Positions 20,963 to 47,648 are shown, counted from the first letter of the stretch. The stretch is 64,000 nucleotides of DNA from Candidatus Doudnabacteria bacterium (GCA_963837465.1 CAWINB010000004.1:724393-788392), one strand, 5' to 3'. Numbers and translations: made by a program. Notes: generated by a model from the sequence alone, not told the origin.

Positions 20963-22108
20963 ATGAAGAAGCAAGAAATTGGTGTTTATATAAAACAGAC
21001 CGAAGGCTTTAAGGCTTTTGTCCCTTATCCTTTTCCACCAAACGGCGGCTTTGACTTTGGCCATGAGATATTAAAGAAAAATGACCAGGCAAGCAGGTTA
21101 CTGGGAAAACTGGATGGCATTACCAAGTTGTTGCCGGATTCAGACTTCTTTTTGCTTATGTATTTAAGAAAGGATGCCGCTTCTTCCAGCCAGATTGAAG
21201 GAACCAGGGCTACCATGATAAATGCCATAGAAGCGGAAGCTAAAGTAAGCGGCAACGTGCCCGCGGACGTAGACGACATTTTGCATTATATAAAAGCCCT
21301 AAACTACGGCATGAAACGGGTGGTTGCGGATGAGTTTCCTGTGTCACTTCGCTTTTTAAGAGAGCTGCATAAAAAACTCATGGACCAAGCCAGGGCAACT
21401 CATTTTTCCGACCCCGGAGAATTCCGCAAAACACAAAATTGGATTGGCGGGAATAAACCAGGCAACGCCAGTTTTGTCCCTCCGCCCGTTTCAGAAATGC
21501 ATCGCGCGTTAAATGACTTGGAAAAATTTATGCATTCGCGGGACGCCACCCTGACGCTAATTAAAGCCGCTCTGCTTCACGCGCAATTTGAAACTATCCA
21601 CCCGTTTTTGGACGGTAATGGCCGCACCGGAAGGATGCTGATAACTTTTTACTTGTGGAAAGAAGGTTTTCTGGAAAAACCCGTTTTGTTCTTGTCTTCC
21701 TACTTCAAAAAATTTCAACAGGTTTATTATCAAAAATTGTTTGGCTACCACCATGGTGAAGTTGAGTTTTGGGTTGATTTTTTTCTGGACGGAGTTATTG
21801 AAATTGCCAACGAAGCCATAGACATTGTAGGAAAAATTACCACTCTCAGAGAACAAGACATGCAAAAAATACAAAAGCTGGGAACTCGCGCCTCGGAAAG
21901 CGCTGCCTCTATTTTACCTAAATTGTACGGACAGCCAATTGTTAATAACGCGTTAGTACAAAAATGGACCGGCTTTACCCGGGCAGGCGCTCAAAGAGTG
22001 ATAGATAGATTTATTAAAATGCGGATTCTTTTGCCTAAAGACCAGGACATAAAATACGGGCAATCTTACGCTTATACAAAATATATTGCCATTTTTGGGA
22101 ATAAGTAG
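20963..22108 (+). CDS. Fic/DOC-family adenylyltransferase (Fic_N + Fic domains)
   Basis: The Fic motif HPFLDGNGRTGRML is present. Confidence 0.85.
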   Translation: MKKQEIGVYIKQTEGFKAFVPYPFPPNGGFDFGHEILKKNDQASRLLGKLDGITKLLPDSDFFLLMYLRKDAASSSQIEGTRATMINAIEAEAKVSGNVPADVDDILHYIKALNYGMKRVVADEFPVSLRFLRELHKKLMDQARATHFSDPGEFRKTQNWIGGNKPGNASFVPPPVSEMHRALNDLEKFMHSRDATLTLIKAALLHAQFETIHPFLDGNGRTGRMLITFYLWKEGFLEKPVLFLSSYFKKFQQVYYQKLFGYHHGEVEFWVDFFLDGVIEIANEAIDIVGKITTLREQDMQKIQKLGTRASESAASILPKLYGQPIVNNALVQKWTGFTRAGAQRVIDRFIKMRILLPKDQDIKYGQSYAYTKYIAIFGNK

Positions 22109-22115
22109 AATTACC

Positions 22116-22442
22116 ATGAACGAAGCCGAAACAAGAGCTGAATATGTTGACCCAAAACTAAAGGCGGGCGGCTGGGGCGAGACCGAAGGATCAAAAGTCC
22201 TGCGGGAATTTCGTATTACCGAAGGGCGTATCCAAGTCGGCGGGGAGCGCGCCAAACCGGAAATTGCCGATTATATTTTGGTTTATAAAAACCAAAAGCT
22301 CGCGGTTATCGAAGCAAAAAAAGAAGACCTTTTGCCAACCGAAGGCGTAGCCCAGGCCATAGCCAGAAATTGTTCCCAGCAGGAGAAGTTTTTAACCCGA
22401 TACTCGCCCCTGTACCTGGCAACACATTTATTGAATTTGTAA
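22116..22442 (+). pseudogene. N-terminal fragment (about 108 aa) of a type I/III restriction endonuclease R subunit
   Basis: MNEAETRAEYVDPKLKAGGWGE...ADYILVYKNQKLAVIEAKK is the conserved HsdR/Res N-terminal nuclease-domain start. The ORF terminates early. Confidence 0.55.
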
Positions 22443-22620
22443 CGAACTACTTGTTCCATAATCTGTGAAAAAACATACTTTCCTTGGTTCATAAAGATAA
22501 TCAAAGGTTAATTCCCTTAATTATCCCATAGCCCAAATTCAAATCGAAAAATATGTTTTTGTCAGATTACGGCTCAATTAAAATCATTTTAAACTTTTAT
22601 TAAAAATTAACCGGACACGA

Positions 22621-23359: not shown

Positions 23360-23722
23360 ATGAATTCCAAAACCACACTATCAATTTCCGAAGCCAGAAA
23401 AAGGATTTTTGAAATCGCGGAAGAAGTCCAAAGACCTGGCGTTTATTATACTTTAACCGATAAGGGCAGGCCCAAAGCGGTAATGGTATCTTTTGACGAA
23501 TACGAATCTTTAATGGAGACTATTGAAGTAACGGGGGAAATGCCTGAACTGGATAAAGATATTAAAGAAGCGCGCGAGGCTTACAAGAGCGGCGAATATA
23601 AAACCTGGACTACTTTGGAAGGTTTGTTAGCCAAGCAAGGTTTTGTTTTGGCGGAAAAAGCAAAAAAACAATATGGCGTTTCTTCTAAGGCTCAATCCAA
23701 ACGCAGAAAAACAATTAAATAA
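23360..23722 (+). CDS. Phd/YefM-family antitoxin
   Basis: N-terminal LSISEARKRIFEIAEEV...KAVMVSFDEYESLMETIE. Confidence 0.75.
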   Translation: MNSKTTLSISEARKRIFEIAEEVQRPGVYYTLTDKGRPKAVMVSFDEYESLMETIEVTGEMPELDKDIKEAREAYKSGEYKTWTTLEGLLAKQGFVLAEKAKKQYGVSSKAQSKRRKTIK

Positions 23723-23927
23723 AATTCCAAATCCTTACAAAGACCGGATTACTGTTACTTTATCCGTAATTGCTGGCAACCCTTGGTTGGGGAAGAAACT
23801 AAAAGGCAAATTTCAAGGTTCTTATTCAGTTAAGGTTTGGCCTTACCGGATTATTTATGATATTTACAAAAATGATTTACTGGTTTTGATAATCAAAATA
23901 AAGCATCGCGGCAATGCTTATGATTAA
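23673..23927 (+). CDS. RelE/ParE-family toxin
   Basis: YRIIYDIYKNDLLVLIIKIKHR C-terminal signature. It overlaps the antitoxin 3' end. Confidence 0.7.
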   Translation: MAFLLRLNPNAEKQLNKIPNPYKDRITVTLSVIAGNPWLGKKLKGKFQGSYSVKVWPYRIIYDIYKNDLLVLIIKIKHRGNAYD

Positions 23928-23936
23928 GGTCCGGCG

Positions 23937-24182
23937 CTAATCACTTATTTTTTTCAGCTCGCTTTGGGTTTTGGCGTGGGCCAGGGCTACCGCAGGGTCC
24001 TTGTGGATGGCGTGGTAGTAATTTTTTTCAAAAGCGCTGCCGTCAGCTTTAGGTTTGAGCAGTTGTTCGCGGTAGGCCAGCATATTGGCGTATTTTTGCG
24101 GACCAGCTTCCTGTTTGCTGTCTAAAAGCTCGTCTATCCCCACCACCAATTCCGAAATTTGCCTCAGCCACGCTGTTGTCAA
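23937..24182 (-). CDS. hypothetical protein
   Basis: 81-aa ORF with no family. Confidence 0.3.
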   Translation of the reverse strand: MTTAWLRQISELVVGIDELLDSKQEAGPQKYANMLAYREQLLKPKADGSAFEKNYYHAIHKDPAVALAHAKTQSELKKISD

Positions 24183-24216
24183 AAATATCCCATTGGGCTA
24201 AAATAAGCTTACTTTT

Positions 24217-25814
24217 ATGCTCAATGAGACCAGGGTTAATTTAAAGCATCTGCTGGAAGACATTCGCGACGCCTATACTTCTCCCCTGGAAGAGGTTATT
24301 TTAACCGAATTGGCTGCCAATGCATTGGACAGCAAGGCTAAGGTTTTACATTTCACGGTGGACGCGGAGCGTAAGTTTTTGCGCTGCGTGGACGACGGCA
24401 ACGGCATGAAGCGGGAGCAACTGAAGAATTACCATAATATCGCGGCTTCCACCAAAACGCGCGGACAGGGCATTGGTTTTGCCGGCGTAGGCGCCAAACT
24501 TTCTTTATTGATTGCCGATAAGGTTGTAACGGAAAGCAAGGGAGGACACGGGACCAAGTCCGCCACGGAATGGCAATTGACCCAAACCTACCGCGCGCCA
24601 TGGAAATTTGTTCCTTATTCCGGGACCGTGCAAACCCCCCGCGGCACTTCCGTTACCATCCATTTTACGGACAGCCGGTCGCGCCTGCTCAGTGAAGATT
24701 TCGTGGAGCAAGCTATTATCCGCCATTTTTATCCGCTGCTTTCCGAACAGTTTTACAATCAGTTTTTAAAATATTTTTATAAAGTTCCCGTCAGTTTTGT
24801 TATTAATGGTCGGCATATTGTTTTGCCGGAAGCCGGGCAGGAAGCGCTGCAACATTGGTTTAAGGTATCGTTGGGAAAAACACGGGCTGCCGCCGGAGTC
24901 GGCTTTTTGGTGCGCGCGGGGATGGGCCAGGCTGGCTGCGGAAGATGCTGGGCAAAAGCGCTGCTGTTTCTTCGCTTTCATCAGGCCTGTGGATTTCCAC
25001 TTTCGGCAAGGTTATTAAAGGCGGTTGGGAGTGGCTGGGTCTTATGCCCAAAAATGCCGCGCAAATTTCCGGCCTGGTGGAAATTCCGGGTATGTCGGAA
25101 ATTTTGACTACCAACAAAAATGATTTTTTAAGCGATGCCAACAGCCTGAAAAAATACTACAAATTCCGCAAGGCCGCGCAGGAGGCGGTGCTGCCGATAC
25201 TGCAGGACATGGGAGAGACGGCTTCTCCCGCCGATATCGCCCCGGAAAAAATTTTGCGTCCTCTTAGCCAGTCTATTACCGGGGCGTTAACGAGCTTGGT
25301 CGGCGATTTTCCCGAGCTGGAAACGTTAATCGGCCAACACCGGACGGAAGCTTTGGGCAGTCCGAGAAAAGAAAAAGATGATAAAAAAATTACGGTTGCC
25401 GAACCCCCGGCGGATTACGGCGGAGATGGGGCCGGGCAGGATTCCGGGAACAGGCCCGATGCCGATCCGGAAGGGGAAAAGTCCGCTCCAACCCCGGCCG
25501 GCATTGCCGATGACTCCAAATCCAAAACAGTCAGGACAAAAACCGCCGGCTTAAAATTGGTGCTGGGGGAAATTGACAACGAAAACGGCGCAATTCTGGG
25601 CCGCGTTATGGAGGATACCCTGACGGTAAACACCGCGCATCCTGCCTGGAAAAAAGCAAAACAAAAAGGCTTGGAAGAATACCATATAGTAATTACGGTA
25701 GCGTCGGTCCTTTCCCAGTTTTTGGAAAGCGAAAAGAACCCGCGGGACTTCTTAAACCGCCTGCTCATAGCGTGGGCAGCTGAAAGTGAAAAAATGGCGG
25801 GAAAATTATTTTAA
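24217..25814 (+). pseudogene. GHKL (HATPase_c, MORC/MutL-like) ATPase, about 530 aa, split by a frameshift near 24900-24945
   Basis: Bergerat-fold motifs ELAANALD (N-box), DDGNGM and GQGIGFAGVGAKLS are present. The reading frame changes from the 24217 frame to the 24945 frame. The tail of frame 1 is nonsense-like. Confidence 0.6.
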
Positions 25815-26238
25815 TATGCCGTTTATTTCTTTTTTAAAATTTTATAATGACCTGGGCCTGAAAGAGATGCGCAGTTTCGCCGTTCCCAGCGGCGCTTTTG
25901 GGGTGCCCATCGGAGAGTACGATCTATTGGAAAATTATTGCGATGAAAGGGGATGCGATTGCCGCAAAGTTATGGTAAATATCATCTCGGTAGAAAACGA
26001 CTCGGTGAAAATTTGGGCCACAATCCATTTTGGCTGGGAAAATCCGTCTTATTATCACGAATACTTTTCAAAAGACATTGCTATTGCCCAAAAAATGTCC
26101 GGTTCGTATCTGGAGCCGCTTGGCGAGCAATCCAAACACGCGCCGCGATTTTTGGGAATCTGGGCGCAAATAATACGAGACGAAAATTATGTGGAACGTT
26201 TGAAAAGACATTATAAACTGTTTAAGGAAAAAATTTAA
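25786..26238 (+). CDS. hypothetical protein
   Basis: 150-aa ORF (possible start MPFISFL at 25816) with no family. Confidence 0.35.
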   Translation: MKKWRENYFNMPFISFLKFYNDLGLKEMRSFAVPSGAFGVPIGEYDLLENYCDERGCDCRKVMVNIISVENDSVKIWATIHFGWENPSYYHEYFSKDIAIAQKMSGSYLEPLGEQSKHAPRFLGIWAQIIRDENYVERLKRHYKLFKEKI

Positions 26239-26263
26239 GCGACCCAATTAAATTTATACATTT

Positions 26264-26473
26264 ATGCTCAAAAATAAAAAAATAAAAGTCAGCGGCAAAA
26301 GCAAAGACATAATAATCCCGGCGCGTATAGCCGACGAGTCCGAATGGGCGAAACTCCTGAAACAAAAACAAGACCCAAAAAAATCCGCCTCCCCAAAAAC
26401 CCCGGTAAAAGGCTTCAAGCTCAGCGACGGCAGGCAGGTTACGCATAACTTACGGAGAAGGATGGGGAGATAG
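26264..26473 (+). CDS. small basic hypothetical protein
   Basis: 69 aa, Lys-rich. Confidence 0.3.
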   Translation: MLKNKKIKVSGKSKDIIIPARIADESEWAKLLKQKQDPKKSASPKTPVKGFKLSDGRQVTHNLRRRMGR

Positions 26474-26522
26474 CATAAAAGATAAAAAAGTAGTAAAATA
26501 AGCCTAAGAAAGGCTTATTTTT

Positions 26523-28064
26523 ATGGCTACAAAAACTAAAAATGGTACATCGGCAAACATAGGTTTTGAAGAAAAGCTTTGGGCCACAGCGGATAAAATG
26601 CGCAACAATATGGACCCGGCCGAATATAAGCACGTTATTCTGGGGCTTATATTTTTAAAGTATATTTCCGACTCTTTTGAAGAACTCTATCAAAAGTTAA
26701 AAACTGATTCTGAATCCGATCCGGAAGATAAAGACGAGTATTTGGCGGAAAACGTTTTTTGGGTGCCGCAGGAGGCACGCTGGAACTATTTACAGGATAA
26801 CGCCAAAAAGCCCGGTATCGGCACTTTGGTAGATGGGGCTATGGTCGCCATTGAAAAAGAAAACCCCACGCTTCGGGGCGTGCTGCCAAAAATTTACGCG
26901 CGCCCGGACCTGGACAAAACCAGGCTCGGTGAAATAATAGATTTAATGAGTTCCCTTGGCCTGGGGGATAACGAAAGTAAGGCTAAGGATTTGTTGGGCC
27001 GGGTATATGAATATTTCATCGGCCGCTTTGCCAGCGCCGAGGGTAAGGGTGGCGGAGAATTTTTTACTCCGCGGTCTGTTGTAAAATTACTGGTGGGAAT
27101 GATTGAGCCTTATAAAGGCAGAATTTATGATCCCTGCTGCGGCAGTGGTGGTATGTTTGTGCAGAGCGAGAAATTTGTGGAAGCGAACGACGGCCGCAAA
27201 GGGGATATTGCGGTGTACGGACAGGAGTTAAATCCTACTACCTGGCGCTTGTGTAAAATGAACCTGGCTATTCGCGGTATAGAAGGAAATATCGGGTCGC
27301 AGCATGCCGATTCGTTCCATAATGACCAGCACAAAGACTTAAAAGCGGATTTTATCTTGGCCAATCCGCCATTTAATATCAGCGATTGGGGAGGGGAGCG
27401 CTTGCGCGATGATGTCCGCTGGCAATACGGCGTGCCGCCAACCGGTAACGCCAACTATGCCTGGATTCAGCATATGGTTTACCATCTTGCTCCAACCGGT
27501 ATAGCCGGTTTTGTTATGGCTAATGGCAGTCTTTCTTCCAATACTTCCGGCGAAGGTGAAATTAGAAAAAATTTAATAGAAAAAGGTTTGGTCGATTGTA
27601 TTGTAGCCATGCCCAGCCAACTTTTTTATACCACACAAATTCCGGCCTGTTTGTGGTTTGTGTCCCGCGACCGTTACGATCACAAATTCCGCAACCGCCA
27701 CGACGAAATACTGTTTATAGACGCCCGTAAAATGGGCGCTATGGTTAGCCGCAAAAACCGCGAATTTGCCGCGGAAGATTTAAACAAAATCACCGGTACC
27801 TACCACAACTGGCGCAACGTCAACGGTAAATACCAGGACGTAAAAGGCTTCTGCAAAGCCGCCAAAATTACGGAAGTGGAAAAAGCCGGCTTCGTCCTAA
27901 CCCCCGGCCGCTATGTTGGCTCGGAAATTGTGGAAGAAGACGATGAAGTCTTTGGAGAAAAAATGAAGCGATTGACCACGGAACTATCAAGCCAATTTAA
28001 GGAATCTAAAGAGCTGGAAGAAAGAATAAAGAAAAATTTGGATTCAATAGGGTTTAAAATATAA
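26523..28064 (+). CDS. hsdM: type I restriction-modification system methyltransferase subunit
   Basis: HsdM N-terminal domain, the motif [13 protein letters not shown], and the FxGxG AdoMet region. Confidence 0.9.
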
Positions 28065-28071
28065 ATAGCAT

Positions 28072-28713
28072 ATGTTGATATTTATTGACGAATCCGGGGA
28101 TCCTGGGTTAAAACTTGGTGAAGGTTCAAGTAAATATTTTACTGTGGCTTTAGTAGTGTTTGAGGAAAATGATGAAGCGCTTGCTTGCGACCAAAAGATT
28201 GAATTGTTCAAGCGAGAATTGGGATGGAAGCCAAAAAGCGAATTTCATTTTAAAAATAACTCAGACAGAGTCCGCAAAGGCTTTTTGCAGGCAGTCGCGC
28301 CGTACAATTTTTTTTATTATGGAATTGTTTTAAACAAAGACCCTAAAAAGTTATGGGGCGAAGGATTTAAGGACAAGCAATCCTTTTACAAATACGCTTG
28401 CGGCCTGGTTTTTGAAAATGCAAAACCCAAACTTACAGAAGCAACAGTTATTATTGATGCCAGCGGCAGTTTGGATTTTAAAAATCAGCTGACTAAATAC
28501 CTGCGCCGCAAATTTAATGAGCAAGGAAATTCAGGTTCTAAAATAATCAAAAATGTAAAGATGCAACGCTCGGAAAGTAATAATTTATTGCAGCTGGCGG
28601 ATTATATTGCAGGCGTAATTAACCGCTCAATCAATAACACTAAAAAATACTCCGGCGATTACAGAAAGCTTATAGCTCACAGGGAGATAAGGGTACAAAT
28701 TTGGCCAAATTAA
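28072..28713 (+). CDS. DUF3800-family protein embedded between hsdM and hsdS
   Basis: N-terminal IFIDESGD and C-terminal LLQLADYIAG signatures. It starts 8 bp after the hsdM stop. Confidence 0.6.
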   Translation: MLIFIDESGDPGLKLGEGSSKYFTVALVVFEENDEALACDQKIELFKRELGWKPKSEFHFKNNSDRVRKGFLQAVAPYNFFYYGIVLNKDPKKLWGEGFKDKQSFYKYACGLVFENAKPKLTEATVIIDASGSLDFKNQLTKYLRRKFNEQGNSGSKIIKNVKMQRSESNNLLQLADYIAGVINRSINNTKKYSGDYRKLIAHREIRVQIWPN

Positions 28714-28886
28714 AACTTCCGACCCTATCCCTTGCGGGAACGCGGCGATAAACGCCACAGTTCAGATCGGAAGCGATTCCATTGTTATTATATCTGACTA
28801 TTAACCTTTGTCAAGAACTGTTAAGACTTGTTAAGCAATTATTCCCTTAATAACAAAAAAAGCCTATAATTAAGGCACTATAATTA

Positions 28887-28914
28887 CCGCAAAATGCCTA
28901 AAGGCATTTTGCGG
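28887..28914. promoter_or_regulatory. perfect 12-bp-stem hairpin ccgcaaaatgcc-taaa-ggcattttgcgg in the hsdM-DUF3800 / downstream-operon spacer
   Basis: Seen directly. It is preceded by tataat-like boxes (cctataattaagg, cactataatta). Confidence 0.45.
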
Positions 28915-28927
28915 TCAAAAACCAGTT

Positions 28928-29257
28928 TTGTCAAACAAGTTTATGAAAAAAGGCTCAAAAAAAGAACTGGAAATTAGCGCGAAAGATCTAAAAACCATTT
29001 TTGGCAAAGACTATAAAAAATTCCAGACAAAAATACTCACCAACTGTTTTTGTATGAACTGCGCAGATAAAAAAGCAAACGCAACAATAATAAACTATAA
29101 AATAATCCTCAACCCCCTAAACGACCTAACCCTCCTCGGCTCCTGCAAAACCTGCGGCTCCAGAATTAACCGATATGTGGAGACTGGGGAAGTGAAGGGG
29201 TATGCGGGAAGGATTAAAAAAATAAGAAAAACATATGACGACTCTGGAAAAAATTAA
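28928..29257 (+). CDS. hypothetical zinc-ribbon protein
   Basis: Contains CFCMNC...CKTCG. It is translationally coupled to downstream ORFs. Confidence 0.4.
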   Translation: MSNKFMKKGSKKELEISAKDLKTIFGKDYKKFQTKILTNCFCMNCADKKANATIINYKIILNPLNDLTLLGSCKTCGSRINRYVETGEVKGYAGRIKKIRKTYDDSGKN

Positions 29258-29552
29258 TCTATGGCAGGCCATATTTACCGGTGTGGCAGTTTTGGTTGCC
29301 GGTGTTGCAACTTATTTGGCTTATAAAATTGGCAAAAAACAGAATAAAATAAATGAGATTGCTTTAAGTATTACCAATTTTGTAGAAATATTTTTGATGC
29401 CGCAACAGGTAATTCTAGAAAATGAACTTAAAGAAAGAATTATCAAATGGAGCATTCTTAATAAAAAATGTCAGCTCTTATCCAATATACTTAAACGAAT
29501 ACAGTCTCAACGGGCTGAAAAATCACGTGGGGAGCAGTGCGATACCAAATGA
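29235..29552 (+). CDS. hypothetical single-TM protein
   Basis: TM helix AIFTGVAVLVAGVATYLAY. Its 3' part overlaps the next ORF in another frame (possible frameshift or overlap). Confidence 0.3.
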   Translation: MTTLEKINLWQAIFTGVAVLVAGVATYLAYKIGKKQNKINEIALSITNFVEIFLMPQQVILENELKERIIKWSILNKKCQLLSNILKRIQSQRAEKSRGEQCDTK

Positions 29553-29724
29553 TTTAGACAGTTGGTATACGGTCCCAATCCCCGAAGATGTACAAACTAA
29601 AGGCGAATTTTCTTTGATCGTTGAATTTGAAGACTACTTGGGTAAAAAATACAAGGCGGAAGGTTTTGGAATTTTTAGAGGCACAGGCTGGGAAATAAAA
29701 TCCAAAAAGAGAATTGAAATATGA
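29422..29724 (+). CDS. hypothetical protein
   Basis: 100 aa, ending 3 bp into hsdS. Confidence 0.3.
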   Translation: MNLKKELSNGAFLIKNVSSYPIYLNEYSLNGLKNHVGSSAIPNDLDSWYTVPIPEDVQTKGEFSLIVEFEDYLGKKYKAEGFGIFRGTGWEIKSKKRIEI

Positions 29725-30980
29725 AACAAATCACTACAAAATTCAAACAAACCGAAATCGGCCTTGTTCCGGAAGAATGGGATGTTTTAAAGGTGTCTGA
29801 TGTTGCAGTGGTGGATGAAGAAGTTATTTCAAAAAATGATAATTTTAGCGAAATTCAGTACTTGGACGTTGCGGCAACAGATCAAGGACAGGTACTAGAA
29901 GTTCAAAAACTAAATCTAGCAGATGCTCCAAGTCGTGCCAAAAGAAAAGTCAAAGACAATGACATTTTAATATCCACAGTAAGGCCAAATTTAAAACATT
30001 ATACTTTTATTAAAAAAGCGCCAAATAATCTAGTGGCTTCTACTGGTTATGCGGTAATAAGTTCAAAAAAAGCAGATCCAAGATATTTATATTACGCTTT
30101 AACAACAGAAGAATTTACAGAATTTCTTGGAAGAATTGCGGATAGCCATACTTCGACTTATCCAGCAATTAATCCAGATGTGATCGAAAACGCTTTAATA
30201 GCAGTACCATCAATAACCGAACAAAAACAAATCGCGGAGATTCTTTGTTCTTTGGACGACAAAATAGAACTGAACCGCAGAATGAATAAAACTTTAGAAG
30301 CAATCGGACAGGCAATTTTTAAACGGTGGTTTGTGGATTTTGAATTCCCAAACGAACAAAGCAAACCTTACAAATCGTCGGGTGGGGAAATGGTAGAAAG
30401 CGAATTGGGTGAAATTCCGAAAAATTGGAATGTTGGAAAGCTAAGTGATATTGCTAATATAATTATGGGCCAATCGCCAAAATCTAAATATTATAATAGC
30501 AATAAAGAAGGTTTGCCGTTTTATCAAGGCGCAACGGATTTTGGAGATCGTTTTCCTACTGAGCGTGTCTATTGCATAAAAAATAGCAGGGTTGCAGAAG
30601 AAAATGATATATTGATGAGTGTTCGCGCTCCTGTAGGGAGAATTAATGTTGCAAACGGCAAACTATCCTTAGGAAGAGGAGTTTGCGCAATGCGCAGCAA
30701 AATTGGAAGTCAGTCACATTTATTGTATTTATTAAAAGTGTTTTTCCATACAGAAGATATTATAGGCGATGGCTCAGTTTTTGCTTCTGTAGCGCGCGAT
30801 GAGCTTTCAAAAATACCGGTTATAGTACCCCCACAAGAGATTGTTAATTTATTTGAAAGAATTACCGGGCAGACGGATAGACAATATGAACTACTAGCAA
30901 AAGAGAATACTAACTTATCCCAAATCCGAGACTCGCTTTTGCCTCGGTTGATGAGTGGAAAAATTAGAGTAATTATATGA
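29721..30980 (+). CDS. hsdS: type I restriction-modification system specificity subunit (two target-recognition domains)
   Basis: Duplicated TRD architecture with conserved spacer helices and a C-terminal ...LPRLMSGKIRV. Confidence 0.85.
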   Translation: MKQITTKFKQTEIGLVPEEWDVLKVSDVAVVDEEVISKNDNFSEIQYLDVAATDQGQVLEVQKLNLADAPSRAKRKVKDNDILISTVRPNLKHYTFIKKAPNNLVASTGYAVISSKKADPRYLYYALTTEEFTEFLGRIADSHTSTYPAINPDVIENALIAVPSITEQKQIAEILCSLDDKIELNRRMNKTLEAIGQAIFKRWFVDFEFPNEQSKPYKSSGGEMVESELGEIPKNWNVGKLSDIANIIMGQSPKSKYYNSNKEGLPFYQGATDFGDRFPTERVYCIKNSRVAEENDILMSVRAPVGRINVANGKLSLGRGVCAMRSKIGSQSHLLYLLKVFFHTEDIIGDGSVFASVARDELSKIPVIVPPQEIVNLFERITGQTDRQYELLAKENTNLSQIRDSLLPRLMSGKIRVII

Positions 30981-31732
30981 TTAGACTTGTTGTGAATTTA
31001 ACATTTTTAGAAAAAATTAAATCTGGGGATTTTCTGACTTTTTTTGCGGTTGTCCTCGCATATCTTGCTTATTCAAAATCAATAAATGATAAATATGAAT
31101 CTTGGCGGTCATTGCTTTTATCTCTCAAGGCTGATTTAGAAAGCCAATCTGCATGGCTGTCTTCTGAATATAAAGAAGAAACTTATAAAGATAAGACTGC
31201 TTTTTCTCCTAGAAAAATTATTTTCCCCCTCTCGTTTAAATCGTTAGAAGAAATAATAAGTCGTGGCGCTAGCGATTTTAATTTTTCGGAAAAATTTATA
31301 AAAAATATTTCAATTTTTGATGAAAGAATAGAAACATTTAACAAGCTCCTTGAACAGCAGAGGCTGAATGTAACTGCAAATCCTGTATTAACACATAATT
31401 TGGTAGAAATTTTGGATTCAAATGGGGCTTGTGATTGCGCCACAACTTATGATAATTTTTTTCAATCTATTGAGAATATGAAGGTTTCTCAGCCGGATTG
31501 TTATGCTTTAGCCAAAAGAATACACTCAATTAATAGGATTATACATATCAACATCATATCAAACGAGGACGACGAAAGCGGCCTGCACTATCTATACAAA
31601 TATTTGTTAAATGAAGTACAAAATAAGCTTTCTAATCTAGAAAAATCTAAGCCGTGGCATTTAAGGTATAAATGGCCGCTATTGATTCTTGGATGCGTTT
31701 TGTTTATTCTTATTGAATCGTTACTAAAATAA
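30977..31732 (+). CDS. hypothetical membrane protein (TM helices at both ends) embedded between hsdS and hsdR
   Basis: 251 aa. It overlaps the hsdS stop by 4 bp and ends 4 bp before hsdR. Confidence 0.45.
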   Translation: MIRLVVNLTFLEKIKSGDFLTFFAVVLAYLAYSKSINDKYESWRSLLLSLKADLESQSAWLSSEYKEETYKDKTAFSPRKIIFPLSFKSLEEIISRGASDFNFSEKFIKNISIFDERIETFNKLLEQQRLNVTANPVLTHNLVEILDSNGACDCATTYDNFFQSIENMKVSQPDCYALAKRIHSINRIIHINIISNEDDESGLHYLYKYLLNEVQNKLSNLEKSKPWHLRYKWPLLILGCVLFILIESLLK

Positions 31733-31735
31733 TAT

Positions 31736-34700
31736 ATGTCAACTTACAAATATACCGAATCAGATTTTGAAGAAGCAACATTGGAATGGCTCCAAGAGCT
31801 TGGTTTTAATATTGCTTTTGGGCCGGATTTAGCGCCGGAGGGGGAGAGTGCGGAGAGGGAAAGTTATGGGGATGTGGTTTTGGTGGGGAGGCTTAGGGCG
31901 GCTGTTGAACGGATTAATCCTGGGGTGCCGGAAGCGGCTAGGAATGATGCTGTGGAGAAGGTTTTGGGTTTGCCCTGGATGAAGCCGAACTTGATGGGGG
32001 TGAATGAGATTTTCCATAAATGGTTGGCGGAAGGGGTGGATGTTACGGTAAAGGAGAAGGATGGTTTTGTGCGGGGAGATAAAGTTTATTTAATAGATGA
32101 GAAAAATTTAAAGAATAACGACTGGTTAGCGGTTAACCAGTTTACGGTTATAGAAAATAACAATAATCGGCGCCCGGATGTTGTGGCTTTTGTGAATGGG
32201 TTGCCGCTGGCAGTTTTTGAGTTAAAAAATCCGGCTAATCCGAATGCTCCAATTGGGGATGCTTTTAACCAGATTCAGACTTACAAAAAAGAAATTCCAT
32301 CTTTATTTGCTTATAACGAACTGTGCGTAATTAGCGACGGAGTGGAAGCTAAGCTCGGCAGCTTTGGCGCGGATTTGGATAGGTTTATGAAGTGGCGGAC
32401 AATAAACGGCGGAGACGTAGAGCCAAAGTCGCGGCCGGAAATGGAAGTTTTGCTTCGCGGGGTGTTTGAAAAACAAAGATTTTTGGATATCGTTAAAAAC
32501 TTTATAGTTTTTGAGGCAACGGAAAAAGAAACCATAAAAAAACTGGCAGCTTACCACCAGTATTATGCCGTGAACAAGGCCCTGCAAAAAACCGTGGAAG
32601 CTACAGCCGAAAATGGCGACAGGCGTTGCGGTGTGGTTTGGCACACACAAGGGTCGGGGAAAAGCTTGAGTATGGTATTTTATGCCGGAAAAGTTATTCA
32701 GACTTTAAACAATCCAACTATAGTTGTGCTAACTGACAGGAATGACTTAGACGGCCAATTGTTTGATGTGTTCGGCAAGTGCAAAGAGCTGCTGCGTCAA
32801 ACCCCGGTGCAGGCGGAAAGCAGGGCGAATTTAAAGGACTTGTTAAAAGTCGCTTCCGGGGGCGTAGTGTTTACAACTATCCAGAAATTTTTTCCGGATA
32901 ACAACGCGCAACAACATCCATTACTTTCTGACAGAAAAAACATTGTAGTAATCGCGGACGAAGCGCACAGAAGCCAGTACGACTTCATAGACGGCTTTGC
33001 CCGGCATACGCGCGACGCTTTGCCCAATGCCAGCTTTATTGGCTTTACCGGCACGCCCATTGAACACACCGACGCCAATACCCGCGCCGTGTTTGGTGAA
33101 TATATAGACATTTACGATATTGCCCGCGCGGTGGAAGACCATGCCACCGTGCCAATTTACTACGAGGCCCGTTTGGCCAAAATAGATTTACCGCCATCGG
33201 AAAAGCCAAAAATAGACAGCGAGTTTGAAGAAATAACCGAAGGCGAAGAAACAGAAAAGGTAGAAAAACTAAAAAGCAAATGGGCGCGGTTTGAAGCTAT
33301 GATTGGCGCGGAAAAAAGAATTCAGCTGATAGCCAAAGACATTGTAGAGCATTTTGAAAACCGTTTGGGAGTTATAGACGGCAAGGGAATGGTTGTTGCC
33401 ATGAGCAGGCGGATTGCTGTTGAGCTGTACGAAGAAATCATCAAACTAAGGCCTCAGTGGGCAACTGCCGACGACCAAACCGGCTTTTTAAAAGTAGTTA
33501 TAACCGGTTCCGCGGCGGACCCGGCAAACTTTCAGCCGCATATTCGCGCCAAACCCGAGCGGGAAAAAATGGGCGACAGAATGCGCGACCCAAAAAACGA
33601 ATTAAAATTGGTAATTGTGCGCGATATGTGGCTAACGGGTTTTGACGTGCCCAGCATGCACACCATGTACATAGACAAACCTATGAAAGGCCACGGCCTT
33701 ATGCAGGCCATTGCCCGAGTCAACAGAATTTACAAAGACAAACAAGGCGGCTTGGTAGTGGATTATTTAGGAATTGCCCAGCAGCTTAAAGAAGCAATGG
33801 CAGATTATACCGACAGCGAGCGCGAAGCGCCAACTATACCGCAGGAAGAAGCGGTAAGTATACTGCTGGAAAAGTATGAAGTCATAAAAGGCTTATTCCA
33901 CGGCTTTGATTACTCCAAATATTTTACCGGCACTAAAGCCAGTCAAAACCAGGTTATGGTTGCGGCGGTGGATTTTATCTTAAAGCCGCAAGATGGCAAA
34001 AAAAGATTTCTGCAGTCCGCGCGGGAACTGTCTTTTGCTTTTTCGCTTTCCGTTCCAAATGATCAGGCTTTAAAAATTCGCGACCAGGTTGCTTTTTTCC
34101 AGGCCGTACGCGGCTATTTGATTAAACTGGAAAGCGGCGGCGGTCTCGGCGGCCCCACGCGGCACGATTACGACATGGCCATTAAACAAATAGTGGCCAA
34201 TGCCATAACCTCCACCGAAGTTATAGACGTTTTTACCGTGGCCGGTTTAAAACGTCCGGACATTTCTATCTTATCCGACGAATTTTTGGAAGAAGTAAAA
34301 AATCTCGAACACAAAAATTTGGCTTTGGAACTTTTAAAGAAACTCCTCAACAACGAAATTCTAACTTTGCAGAAAAAGCATTTGGTAAAATCACGCCTAT
34401 TTTCCCAAATGCTGGAGGAAACATTAAGGAAATATCAAAACCAAACTATAGAATCCGCGCAGGTTATTGCCGAACTCATTGAGCTGGCCAAAAAAATTCG
34501 TGCCGACCAGAACAGGGGAGTGGATTTAAAGCTTTCCGATGACGAAGTTGCTTTTTATGACGCCCTGGCTGATAATGAAAGCGCGCAGGAATTAGGGGAC
34601 GAAACCCTAAAACAAATTGCCCGGGAGCTGGTCCAATTATTGCGGAAAAATACCACCATAGACTGGACGCTTAAAGAAAGCATTCAGGCAAAGCTTAGGG

Positions 34701-43595: not shown

Positions 43596-45332
43596 ATGAA
43601 AGATTTTTTTAAATCGCTTTTCACCAATAAAAAAAGACTGGCAATTTTTATAATTTTAATTCTGGCCGCGGGCTACTTTATTTACAGGCATTATTCCGCC
43701 AAAGCCTCGCCGGTATCCTATTTAACCGCCCAGGCTTCCGACCAGACTATTATCAGCTCGGTATCCGGCACCGGTCAGGTTTCGGAAGACCGCGATGTAG
43801 ATATTACCCCGCAAACATCAGGACAACTGACCGCGGTAGATGTTACCCAGGGGCAGCAGGTTAAAGCCGGACAGACTATCGCGGTTGTAGACGAAACCAA
43901 TAATACCATTGCCTTAAACCAGGCCAGAGCGTCTGTTGCCAGCGCCCAGGCCAACTATGACCAGGTTCTGGCCGGCAGCACTTCTCAGGCTATAGAGTTG
44001 GCGCAACTGGCAGTCGCTGCCGATCAGGAAGCCGTTACCACCGCCAGCACCAGCCTTCAAACCACCAAACAACAGGATGCTACCAACGTAGCCAATGCCC
44101 TGACAAATCTTTTAAATTCCTCTCCCTCAGCCATGGCTTCCAATACCAATATTGGCACCGGAACGGTCAATATTACAGGTAACTACACCGGTACCCAGCA
44201 AGGTACATATACCATACAGATTTACAGCACCGGTTCTGGCAAACAGTTTGACTATACCGGTCTTGAAAGCGGTACGGGAGTAATCAGCAGCGTGCCGCAG
44301 CCTTTAGGCACAAAAGGTTTGTATGTTGCCTTTACCGGCCAGCCGATTGATACTGATACCTGGACCGTTTCCATCCCCAATACTTTAGCGTCCAACTACA
44401 CGGCTAATTACAATGCTTACCAAACAGCCTTAACCAGCCAAGCCAACGATATTACGACTGCCCAAAACCAAATTGTATCCGCCCAAAATAAATTGCAGCA
44501 GGACGAAGTTAATTTACAGGTTCAGCAGCAACCGCCTACCAACCAGGCCGTGGAAAGCGCTAAAGCCTCCTTAATTCAGGCTCAGGCCCAGTTGCAGGAT
44601 GCTCAAATTACATATAATAATAATATTTTAAAAGCGCCCTTTGACGGTGAAGTTGCTCAGCTAAATAACCAAGTCGGCGACCAAGTAAGCGCTTCCACCG
44701 ACGTGGCGGTAATGGTTACCAATCAATCGGTAGCTATAATCCCATTAAATGAGGTTGATGTGGCAAATGTCCAGCTCGGGGATAAAGTCAGCATGACTTT
44801 TGACGCCGTTACGAACCTGACAATTACCGGTACCGTAGTGGAAATAGACAATATAGGTACCGTTAGCCAAGGGGTGGTAAGCTATAATGTAAAAATTACT
44901 TTTGATACCGAAGATCCTCGCGTTAAGTCGGGCATGAGTGTTTCCGCTTCCATAATTACCAACATAGCGGCTGATGTTCTCTCGGTCCCCAGTACGGCTA
45001 TTCAAATCCAGGGGACAAACAGCTATGTGGAAGTTTTAACTTCCGGCGATACGACTCCGGCGGTTAGCGGTCAAGGTGTAACTTCCAAAGTAGCCCCCAC
45101 AAACGTAGTGGTGCAAACAGGGGTTACCGATGATACCAATACCCAGATTACCGGAGGTAACCTGAAAGTCGGTGATACGGTGGTAACGCAAACTATTAAT
45201 CCTACGGCTACCAAATCGGCTGCCAGTTCAGCCACCAGCGCTTTGCGCCTTGGGGGCGGAGGCGGAGGCTTTGGCGGCGGCGGAGGCGGGGGAGCCGTCA
45301 GAGTTACCACGGGAGCGGCCGGGGCAAGATAA
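43596..45332 (+). CDS. HlyD/MacA-type periplasmic adaptor (membrane fusion protein) with a long Thr/Gln-rich insert and a Gly-rich C-terminus
   Basis: N-terminal TM anchor, a biotinyl-lipoyl-like motif, and LKAPFDGEVAQLNNQVGDQVS beta-barrel motifs. Confidence 0.7.
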   Translation: MKDFFKSLFTNKKRLAIFIILILAAGYFIYRHYSAKASPVSYLTAQASDQTIISSVSGTGQVSEDRDVDITPQTSGQLTAVDVTQGQQVKAGQTIAVVDETNNTIALNQARASVASAQANYDQVLAGSTSQAIELAQLAVAADQEAVTTASTSLQTTKQQDATNVANALTNLLNSSPSAMASNTNIGTGTVNITGNYTGTQQGTYTIQIYSTGSGKQFDYTGLESGTGVISSVPQPLGTKGLYVAFTGQPIDTDTWTVSIPNTLASNYTANYNAYQTALTSQANDITTAQNQIVSAQNKLQQDEVNLQVQQQPPTNQAVESAKASLIQAQAQLQDAQITYNNNILKAPFDGEVAQLNNQVGDQVSASTDVAVMVTNQSVAIIPLNEVDVANVQLGDKVSMTFDAVTNLTITGTVVEIDNIGTVSQGVVSYNVKITFDTEDPRVKSGMSVSASIITNIAADVLSVPSTAIQIQGTNSYVEVLTSGDTTPAVSGQGVTSKVAPTNVVVQTGVTDDTNTQITGGNLKVGDTVVTQTINPTATKSAASSATSALRLGGGGGGFGGGGGGGAVRVTTGAAGAR

Positions 45333-45418: not shown

Positions 45419-46141
45419 ATGATTGAAATCCAGAATGTCACCAAAACTTATAAAAGCGGGGATAACGAAACCACCGCGCTCAAGGGCGTCAGTTTTACAG
45501 TGAAGGACGGGGAGTTTGTGGCTATTATGGGTCCTTCCGGCAGCGGCAAGTCCACGCTTATGCATATTATCGGCGCGCTGGATAATCCGACCTCCGGCAA
45601 ATACCTGCTCGACGGCCGCGATGTTTCCACTATGAGCGAACAGGAGCTTGGTAATATCCGCAAAGACCACATAGGTTTTGTTTTTCAGGCTTTTAACCTT
45701 CTTCCGAGGACTACTGTTTTGCGCAATGTGGAGTTGCCTCTTATGTACGCCGAGGTGCCTAAAGCGCAGAGGGAACAACTGGCCAAAAAAGCGCTGCTCG
45801 CGGCCGGAATGAGCGAAGACAGATTTTCCCACTATTCCAACCAGCTTTCCGGCGGCCAGATGCAAAGAGTGGCCATTGCCCGCGCTTTGGTAAATAACCC
45901 TTCCCTAATTTTGGCCGATGAACCAACCGGCAACCTTGATACCAAAACAGGGGAAATAGTTTTGGGAACTTTTCAAAAATTAAATCGCGAAGGCCACACG
46001 GTTGTTTTAATTACCCATGAGCGCGACGTGGCTGAGCACGCGCAAAAAATCATACTTCTCCGCGACGGCCTTATAGTTAAGGAAGAGACCGCGCACCGGC
46101 AAAAAGCCGCCAGTCCGGATCAGGTCAATGATATTATTTAA
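45419..46141 (+). CDS. ABC transporter ATP-binding protein (MacB/LolD family)
   Basis: Walker [10 protein letters not shown], the signature [15 protein letters not shown], and Walker [12 protein letters not shown]. Confidence 0.9.
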
Positions 46142-46417: not shown

Positions 46418-47648
46418 ATGCTTACAAAAGATTTGATGGAAGAAACATATTGGGCACTTTCCGCCAATAAAGTGCGGTCATTTTTGACAATTTTAGGCAT
46501 TGTTATTGGAGTTGCCTCGGTGATAGCCATGATAGCCGTAGGGCAGGGCTCCCAAAGCAGCATCCAAAACAGCATCCAGTCCGCCGGAGCCAATTTGTTA
46601 ACAATTAGTCCCGGAGCCCAGGTGGGAGTTGGGGTTACGGTAAGCTCCGGTCGTGGCAGCGCCCAGACCTTGCTGCAAACCGACGCCACCGCCATTACCC
46701 AAAATGTGCCGCTGGTTTCCGCCGTATCTCCGGAATTTAGCGGGCGTTACCAGGTCACGGCAAAAGGCACCAACACCAACACCAGCGTAATTGGTGTTTT
46801 ACCGGCCTACCTACAGGTTCACAACGTGCAGATTCAGGAAGGCAGCTTTATTACCGCCGAGCAAAATACCCAGTTGGCCAGAGTTGTGGTTTTGGGCCCG
46901 ACGGCGCGCGACGATTTATTCGGCGTGGGAGCGGAAGCCGTAGGCCAGACAATAATAATTAAAAGCGAAGAGTTTAAAGTTATCGGTATAACAGTTTCCA
47001 AGGGCGGCACCGGTTTTAACAATCCGGATGACGCGATTTACAGCGCCTTTATCAACGGTGCAGCATTTTTTAGCCGGGGATACCACAGGTTATCTCACGA
47101 GTATCGCCGTCCAGGTTCAAAATCAGAGTGATATGGACGCGGCGCAAAACGAGATAACCACCCTCCTGCTGCAACGGCACAATATTTCAAACCCGACCAA
47201 CGCGGACTTTAGTATTGTCAATCAGGCCGATATTGTGGCATCCGCTTCCACCGTTACCAATACTTTTACCATACTTTTGGCTTCGGTGGCGGGAATTTCC
47301 CTGTTGGTGGGCGGTATTGGCATCATGAATATGATGCTGACTACTGTAACCGAACGTACCCGGGAAATCGGCTTGCGCAAAGCTATCGGCGCGCAAAAAA
47401 CCGATATTACCAAGCAATTTTTGAGCGAAGCCGTTATGCTGACTTTTTTGGGCGGAATGATAGGTATTGTACTGGGGTGGCTGATTACCTTGGCTGTAAC
47501 TTATTTTGCCAATATCGCGACCCAAGTTTCGTATTCATCCATCCTTTTGGCTTTTGGGGTTTCCGCGGCCATTGGTATAATTTTTGGCTATTACCCTTCC
47601 AGAAGGGCGGCTGCCTTAAATCCGATTGAGGCGCTGAGGTATGAATAA
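46418..47648 (+). pseudogene. ABC transporter permease (MacB/FtsX family) with a +1 frameshift in a T6 run at 47066-47071
   Basis: Frame a ends ...DDAIYSAFINGAAF. Removing one T gives ...AFLAGDTTGYLTSIAVQV, continuing into the FtsX domain (frame of 47028..47648). Confidence 0.7.

Follow-up and report, generated by a model that had tools for sequence, protein, structure and literature searches.

A probable one-base frameshift splits the gene for a stand-alone GHL-type ATPase of an uncharacterised family in a Candidatus Doudnabacteria genome

Introduction

In ATPases of the GHL subgroup, which includes MutL, Hsp90, type II topoisomerases and MORC, a GHKL (Bergerat-fold) ATP-binding domain is followed by an S5-type transducer domain. 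Here we describe a gene of this type at positions 24217-25814 of a 64,000-nt stretch of DNA from a Candidatus Doudnabacteria bacterium (GCA_963837465.1, CAWINB010000004.1:724393-788392), referred to below as the window. The MORC ATPases have been defined by a GHKL plus S5 module, an S5 motif of the form GhXhhpXXRhl and a location in operons of the restriction-modification (R-M) type together with helicases, methylases and endonucleases (Iyer, Abhiman and Aravind 2008, PMC2292703). The type I-D Shedu protein VcSduA (PMC12137116) resembles the window protein in that one polypeptide combines a GHKL ATPase at the N terminus, a clamp-like domain in the middle and a separate domain at the C terminus, and in its sporadic distribution. 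The two differ at the C terminus: the window protein has no DUF4263 or PD-(D/E)xK nuclease domain, and its C-terminal domain is weakly YbeY/zincin-like, with no recognisable catalytic motif.

The original prediction for this locus was a single frameshifted, MORC-like GHKL ATPase gene in partnership with a neighbouring type I R-M system. The analysis reported here supports the single frameshifted GHKL ATPase gene, bears out the MORC-like label in part and does not support the partnership. We conclude, with a probability of about 0.85, that positions 24217-25814 are one gene, whose product is a stand-alone ATPase of the GHL type, 532 residues long and belonging to an uncharacterised family, that the gene is broken by the loss of one G, and that it lies outside the adjacent type I R-M system.

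Results

The gene was predicted to comprise two overlapping open reading frames (ORFs), 24217..25107 and 24945..25814. Both were found at exactly these coordinates, the former in frame 1 (296 aa) and the latter in frame 3 (289 aa), with frame 3 already open upstream from 24864. The frame-joined protein was searched against 5.8 billion proteins and yielded >2,392 matches, the best of which had 68% identity over 100% of the query. Full-length matches were ~500-555 aa in length, and those with a named source were almost all from Patescibacteria and were labelled 'ATP-binding protein' or 'hypothetical protein'. Because intact homologues spanned 100% of the joined protein, the two ORFs are parts of a single frameshifted GHKL ATPase gene. 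The alternative originally offered, that they are unrelated genes, is contradicted by the end-to-end alignment of the homologues with the joined protein. The intact orthologues that had been proposed as a check also exist, as ~525-aa proteins, mostly from Patescibacteria, of up to 68% identity. The first ORF is on record as a 296-aa protein, with a single 868,218-bp contig as its source.

Related loci were collected in a genome scan covering one genome per species (185,579 species), and the best 80 loci of the 397 genomes with relatives were examined. In 79 of these 80 loci, the gene was uninterrupted. The sole frame-changer was L079 (7756-9260), in which frame 1 gives way to frame 3 somewhere between residues 387 and 461, inside the variable linker described below.

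Alignment with the homologues located the break. Frame 1 tracks the homologues as far as ...GVGFLVRAG, ending in the GGG codon at 24919-24921, and frame 3 tracks them from GAT GGG CCA GGC TGG, encoding DGPGWLRKMLG, onward. The DNA at the break reads GTG CGC GCG GGG ATG GGC CAG. Addition of one G to the GGGG run at 24918-24921 produced a 532-aa protein whose repaired junction, LVRAGDGPGWLRKMLG (LVRAGDGPGWL), is equal in length to that of the homologues, LVKAGTEPGWLQKILG (LVKAGTEPGWL). The shift had been bracketed at 24900-24945; it lies within that interval and is now placed to the base. No further stops or shifts were found in the repaired gene.

The integrity of the repaired protein was assessed at positions at least 95% conserved among 75 other family members. 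The protein kept all 54 such positions before the shift and all 32 after it (86/86), and its identity to its nearest relatives was equal before and after the shift, within the range of those relatives among themselves. The retention of all 86 residues indicates that the lesion is either very recent or an assembly error. The initial description of the gene as freshly inactivated or mis-assembled had thus named the right pair of options. The GGGG run was not present in the 14 homologues whose DNA was inspected, which argues against a conserved slippery site. Neither the GGGG nor the GGGGG allele was matched when JGI metagenomes were scanned for the exact pattern.

A second frameshifted gene is present in the window. 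It encodes a MacB-like ABC permease and is split into ORFs 46418..47131 (+; MacB_PCD, 5.8e-41) and 47028..47648 (+; FtsX, 3.9e-23), flanked by genes for an intact HlyD-like adaptor (43596..45332) and an intact ABC ATPase (45419..46141). Its junction is near 47042-47050 (tac a gcg cct), outside any homopolymer. Further pairs of overlapping frames in the window, among them prfA/prmC and a sigma factor, were considered as frameshifts and rejected, as they are separate intact genes.

The features of the ATPase gene are listed in Table 1.

Table 1. Features of the ATPase gene and its upstream region, in window coordinates.
Feature	Position	Strand	Basis or remark
Promoter-like site, TTGTCA-17-TAAAAT, 10/12 matches, 13 nt upstream of the start codon	24176..24204	+	Consensus match; number of such sites in the region not above shuffled expectation
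5' part of the gene, frame 1, codons 1-235: Bergerat (GHKL) ATP-binding domain (~residues 1-190) and first transducer strands	24217..24921	+	Pfam HATPase_c_3, E=5.9e-11
GGGG run, site of the one-base loss	24918..24921	+	One added G restores the frame
Remainder of the transducer (S5-like) domain, frame 3, residues 236-335, with near-MORC motif G257-LWISTFGK265-VI and invariant LTTNK301 loop	24921..25220	+	
Premature frame-1 stop codon	25105..25107	+	Literal product of 296 aa: 235 native and 61 out-of-frame residues
Helical segment, then a variable and charged linker modelled at low confidence, residues 336-424	25221..25487	+	pLDDT <50 at 386-423; no conservation
C-terminal alpha/beta domain, residues 425-532, and stop codon	25488..25814	+	N472 and H475 invariant across the family

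The domain order of the repaired protein is GHKL ATP-binding domain, transducer domain, linker and C-terminal domain. In Pfam searches, the first ORF matched HATPase_c_3 at 43 bits (cut-off 25) over residues 26-124 and HATPase_c at 32.2 bits (cut-off 26.4); neither the second ORF nor the two ORFs downstream of the gene had a match. Invariance was judged over 76 family members, down to 38% identity. The N box (motif I, ExxxNxxD) has invariant E31, N35 and D38, all kept in the window. Motif II (DxGxG; D59-D-G61-N-G63) and the glycine lid (motif III; G85-I-G87-F-A-G90-V-G92) are likewise invariant, with invariant lid residues spanning 83-92. The Bergerat motifs reported at the outset are thus confirmed. 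Invariant residues of the transducer include G257, S261, G264, K265, G270, W271, W273, T298, K301, R318 and K319.

An AlphaFold model of the repaired protein was built from 62 sequences and had a mean predicted local distance difference test score (pLDDT) of 78.9, with high values to approximately residue 335. The protein matched the solved structures of MORC3, TRAP1/Hsp90 and MutL about equally well. Structures consisting of an ATP-binding domain only aligned over just 133-159 residues, which indicates that the protein comprises an ATP-binding domain and an S5-type transducer, the arrangement of the GHL subgroup. The top 50 Foldseek matches were all Hsp90-family chains, and some of these alignments covered all three domains. 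The first matches of the family sequence profile were the N-domains of Hsp90 and GRP94 (E ~5e-6), and a profile of transducer residues 186-340 had 0 matches in the PDB at E<=10.

The C-terminal domain weakly resembles the YbeY and zincin folds, and N472 and H475 are its sole residues invariant across the family. Neither HExxH nor the YbeY H3xH5xH motif occurs in it. As no convincing H-N-H pattern was found either, we ascribe no catalytic activity of the zincin or HNH type to this domain. A C-terminal region of ~290 unassigned residues had been described for this locus; the region exists but is not a single block, as it holds most of the transducer domain, the linker and the C-terminal domain.

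We then compared the protein with each described GHL family. The strict MORC motif GhXhhpXXRhl was found in none of the 76 members, and a relaxed form, allowing K for R and a small residue at position 5, in 67 of them; the sequence in the window is GLWISTFGKVI. The family thus has the GHKL and S5 module in common with MORC and paraMORC proteins, but K replaces R, and S stands at a hydrophobic position of the S5 signature. Moreover, it lacks the conserved linkage to helicases, methylases and endonucleases and has no match to MORC sequences or to the Pfam MORC S5 model. The label 'MORC-like' given to the gene originally therefore holds for the GHKL/S5 module and the near-match motif; it does not hold for the strict motif, for an R-M operon, which is absent, or for the Foldseek ranking, with its top 50 all from the Hsp90 family.

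Scores against curated models placed the protein outside the remaining families. The HtpG equivalog models NF003555 and NF010683 gave 27.8 bits (versus 371) and 16 (versus 455), respectively. Relative to the Hsp90 family (HtpG, TRAP1, GRP94), the window protein is ~100 residues shorter, its charged linker precedes the C-terminal domain rather than following the N-domain, its middle region is without sequence similarity to solved structures, and its family is sporadic where Hsp90 is near-universal. The MutL equivalog models TIGR00585 and NF000951 gave 20.4 bits (versus 180) and 19.3 (versus 391), respectively. Unlike MutL, whose N-terminal ATPase fragment is known as LN40, the window protein has no MutL C-terminal endonuclease/dimerisation domain and no MutS/MutH context. 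The curated model for the BbrUII restriction enzyme scored far under its threshold. PADLOC-DB 2.0 gave no significant match; the only hit was TmtA (E=2e-5) over residues 31-100, the region of the generic ATP-binding motifs. Because the HtpG, MutL and BbrUII models scored far under their thresholds and the PADLOC match was weak and generic, we regard the family as a separate branch of GHL ATPases. It would work like MutL, Hsp90 and MORC in outline and is a member of none of them.

Relatives were present in 397 of the 185,579 species-representative genomes. Loci L001-L042 were mostly from Patescibacteria, at 42-68% identity, and L043-L080 for the most part from other phyla, among them Omnitrophota, Chloroflexota and Thermotogota as well as one archaeal bin, with identities largely of 38-46%. 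Among 1.84 billion cluster representatives (50% identity), searched exhaustively with HMMER, 229 clusters reached E<=1e-30. Full-length members in that search were 490-560 aa, and no listed match exceeded 574 aa, giving no sign of extra fused domains. The family is thus uniform in length, sporadic and commonest in Patescibacteria, and the databases call it merely 'ATP-binding protein'. Searches of 72,556 plasmids, 50,697 phages and 2.9 million IMG/VR contigs yielded no relative, and a mobile-element origin was rejected on these grounds; PHROGs gave one weak match, to a family of unknown function. Overall, the gene is chromosomal, rare, phylogenetically scattered and positionally unstable, which indicates an accessory, laterally moving gene rather than a housekeeping chaperone.

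In the distant relatives, from L042 onward, a gene encoding a protein of ~149 aa overlaps the stop codon of the ATPase gene, mostly by 4 nt (for example, L049 9527-9976). A hidden Markov model (HMM) of this partner matched 26 loci from L042 onward and had no match in L001-L041 or in the window. The 149-aa protein holds a stretch resembling a helix-turn-helix (HTH), FArDlGvSESSIkKIisFRKRF, and had no significant match in Pfam, the PDB or PHROGs. The 140-aa ORF that follows the ATPase gene in the window (150 aa as first called) was considered as an equivalent of this partner and rejected, as the partner HMM was silent in the window and the ORF belongs to its own family.

Synteny was examined by tblastn of 13 window proteins against the 80 related loci. 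The products of hsdM, hsdS, hsdR, the DUF3800 gene and the 140-aa and 69-aa ORFs had no counterpart beside the 80 relatives, save three weak matches to the methylase (hsdM) domain. All-against-all clustering of 893 flanking proteins did not reveal any neighbour conserved across the Patescibacteria clade. When the 150 proteins flanking the gene most closely in this clade were assigned to Pfam families, no family occurred more than 4 times, and R-M methylases accounted for 2 of the 150. Infrequent recurring neighbours were a Fic gene (4 loci, as well as the window and the contig of P0003) and a gene for a PIF1-like helicase (6 loci, adjoining in 3); AbiEii, toxin-antitoxin pairs and conjugation genes were further neighbours of the relatives. 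The sole local synteny was with L003, also from Doudnabacteria (64% identity), where a Phd/YefM-ParE pair lies just upstream of the ATPase gene and the downstream genes differ. This pair occupies 23360-23927 (+) in the window and 6683-7295 in L003, with 45% identity for each protein.

The partnership with the R-M system that had been proposed for this gene was not supported by these data: R-M methylases were 2 of 150 neighbours and no hsdM, hsdS or hsdR recurred. It had also been suggested that intact orthologues with the same neighbours be sought; across the 80 loci, the orthologues were intact and the R-M neighbours did not recur. The G+C content of the ATPase gene (51%) is further unlike that of the hsdS region (36%), the window as a whole having 45%. 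Finally, a palindromic, terminator-like hairpin at 26495-26521 stands between the 69-aa ORF and hsdM, although such sites were no commoner in the window than in shuffled sequence. The gene and the adjacent R-M locus are best understood as separate accessory modules sharing one island.

The surroundings of the gene form a mosaic accessory island that comprises, in addition to the ATPase gene, a Fic gene, an HsdR fragment with an insertion sequence (IS) remnant, the Phd/ParE pair, two small ORFs and a type I R-M locus into which a DUF3800 gene is inserted. Two ORFs had been noted after the ATPase gene, and both are present; the start of the first was corrected to give 25816..26238 (140 aa, ATG), as on record (P0121). 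This ORF (+) encodes a conserved hypothetical protein with a CDERGCDC motif. Of its ~95 relatives, two have a SEC-C motif; the relatives occur in unrelated contexts, such as beside SMC and beside GroES/EL.

Upstream, an HsdR N-terminal fragment (22086..22442; PF04313, 9.4e-7) is overlapped by the N-terminal remnant of an IS4-type transposase on the minus strand (22283..22504; DUF4372, 2.7e-16). Apparently, an insertion sequence once disrupted an older restriction gene beyond function and then fell into decay as well. Over 24000-34000, the G+C content changes from ~51% in the ATPase gene to ~47% in hsdM, ~36% from the DUF3800 gene through hsdS to a 251-aa ORF, and 42-48% in hsdR, which suggests that the island was built from separately acquired pieces. 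The DUF3800 gene (28072-28713, +; 1.5e-15) lies between hsdM and hsdS and also matches the PADLOC candidate model PDC-M04A (1.3e-8); this gene, embedded as it is in the type I R-M locus, may have an accessory role in defence. Between it and hsdS, at 28928-29724 (+), are ORFs of 109, 105 and 100 aa in three frames, overlapping by 23 and 131 nt. None of the three had a significant family match, and they may represent either a further gene in decay or small genes of unknown kind. The 251-aa ORF (30977-31732, +) lies between hsdS and hsdR, overlaps the hsdS stop codon by 4 nt and had no match in Pfam or PADLOC.

Discussion

The evidence presented here concerns a single lesion in an otherwise well-preserved gene, and the origin of that lesion admits several explanations. 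Judged from the sequence, an assembly or sequencing indel appears slightly likelier than a real, very recent mutation. The occurrence of two single-lesion frameshifts among the ~60 genes of the window suggests indel errors, and the second of these lies in the gene for a transporter permease, the rest of the operon being intact. A true pseudogene of very recent origin, in which the organism really carries GGGG and has lost the ATPase with other parts of a decaying accessory island, is a serious contender to which we give somewhat less than even odds. Such a loss would fit the HsdR fragment overlapped by a transposase remnant in the same island, the frame change in one other relative, L079, and the quick turnover of accessory genes. 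It accords less well with a lone lesion that leaves 86 of 86 conserved positions intact, and the pair of lesions in ~60 genes suits indel errors equally well. A programmed change of frame, by ribosomal or transcriptional slippage or by phase variation at the G run, to give short and full-length products, is hardly credible. The site is in a short homopolymer and the direction is compatible with a -1 slip, but there is no X XXY YYZ heptamer, and tracts at phase-variable loci are usually far longer than four G. We rejected programmed frameshifting, as 79 of the 80 related loci are uninterrupted and the G run is missing from the 14 inspected homologues. If the sequence is taken literally, the 296-aa product keeps the ATP-binding fold and lacks the transducer lysines and the C-terminal domain, and should be inactive.

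The nature of the intact protein is likewise open to more than one reading. That the family is a housekeeping Hsp90/HtpG-like chaperone of Patescibacteria, with no accessory or conflict-related role, is unlikely. The Hsp90-family chains that fill the Foldseek top 50, some spanning the N-terminal, middle and C-terminal domains, favour it, as do the best sequence matches, to Hsp90/GRP94 N-domains and the HtpG model, and the presence of DnaJ and Hsp70 a few kb away on the contig of one relative. However, merely 397 of 185,579 species-representative genomes carry the family, its genomic position varies, and its HtpG equivalog score is 27.8 bits against a cut-off of 371. In other phyla, moreover, the gene is coupled translationally to that of a small HTH-like protein, which is not a chaperone arrangement. 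Quite unlikely, in our estimate, is a MORC/paraMORC-type accessory ATPase working with the adjacent type I R-M system. Beyond the adjacency itself, the neighbourhood is unconserved, with three weak methylase-domain matches and 2 R-M methylases among 150 neighbours, and the closest syntenic relative, L003, has the upstream Phd/ParE pair but lacks these R-M genes. Strict MORC motifs are absent (0/76), other measures give Hsp90 and MutL matches at least as good as those to MORC, and the ATPase gene and the R-M region differ in G+C content. Our preferred reading is that of a stand-alone GHL-type ATPase.

The mode of action of such an ATPase may be proposed by analogy. As in MutL, Hsp90 and MORC, the repaired protein would form a homodimer through its C-terminal domain. 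Binding of ATP by the N box and glycine lid would cause the N-terminal domains to close into a clamp, and a basic residue of the transducer would complete the ATPase site. The transducer has four invariant basic residues among the 76 members (K265, K301, R318 and K319); K301, in the invariant LTTNK loop, is the best candidate for this residue, and K265 is a second possibility. On closing, the clamp would exert its effect on DNA or on a client protein. Overall, we infer that the protein is a dimeric clamp driven by ATP, with an accessory role that is possibly related to conflict.

Several points weigh against this account. The clamp mechanism, the dimerisation and the putative catalytic role of K301 or K265 all lean on solved GHL ATPases, and the transducer region is without detectable sequence similarity to any solved structure (0 at E<=10). 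A gap of 2 nt separates the stop codon of the ATPase gene from the 140-aa ORF, which makes co-transcription with the downstream genes possible. With respect to the lesion, the frameshift in the MacB-like permease is not homopolymeric, and a simple model of homopolymer error therefore misses one of the two lesions. The island also holds real decay, in the HsdR fragment and the IS remnant, consistent with genuine pseudogenisation.

For annotation, these results mean that the split ORFs should be described as one gene with a single-base frameshift at 24918-24921 and that the ATPase gene should be left out of the type I R-M system. The presence of two frameshifts within 64 kb is also a warning on the indel quality of the assembly. 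The case is ordinary for the window; it has a modest side interest in an undescribed family of GHL ATPases with a fixed small partner outside Patescibacteria. This family is compact and uniform, has the full engine of the MutL/Hsp90/MORC type together with a C-terminal domain of its own, and is described in curated resources merely as 'ATP-binding protein'. It is possible, although on balance doubtful, that the family is an unrecognised conflict system directed against phages or mobile elements, in which an Hsp90/MORC-like clamp is joined to a degenerate zincin/YbeY-like C-terminal domain. The system would be solitary in Patescibacteria and HTH-partnered in Omnitrophota, Chloroflexota, Thermotogota and one archaeon, and the copy in the window, within a defence island, would be one that was either disabled recently or sequenced wrongly. 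If the family does prove to be a defence or regulatory system, it would represent another use of the GHL clamp and would be among the few accessory functions assignable in the genomes of Patescibacteria.
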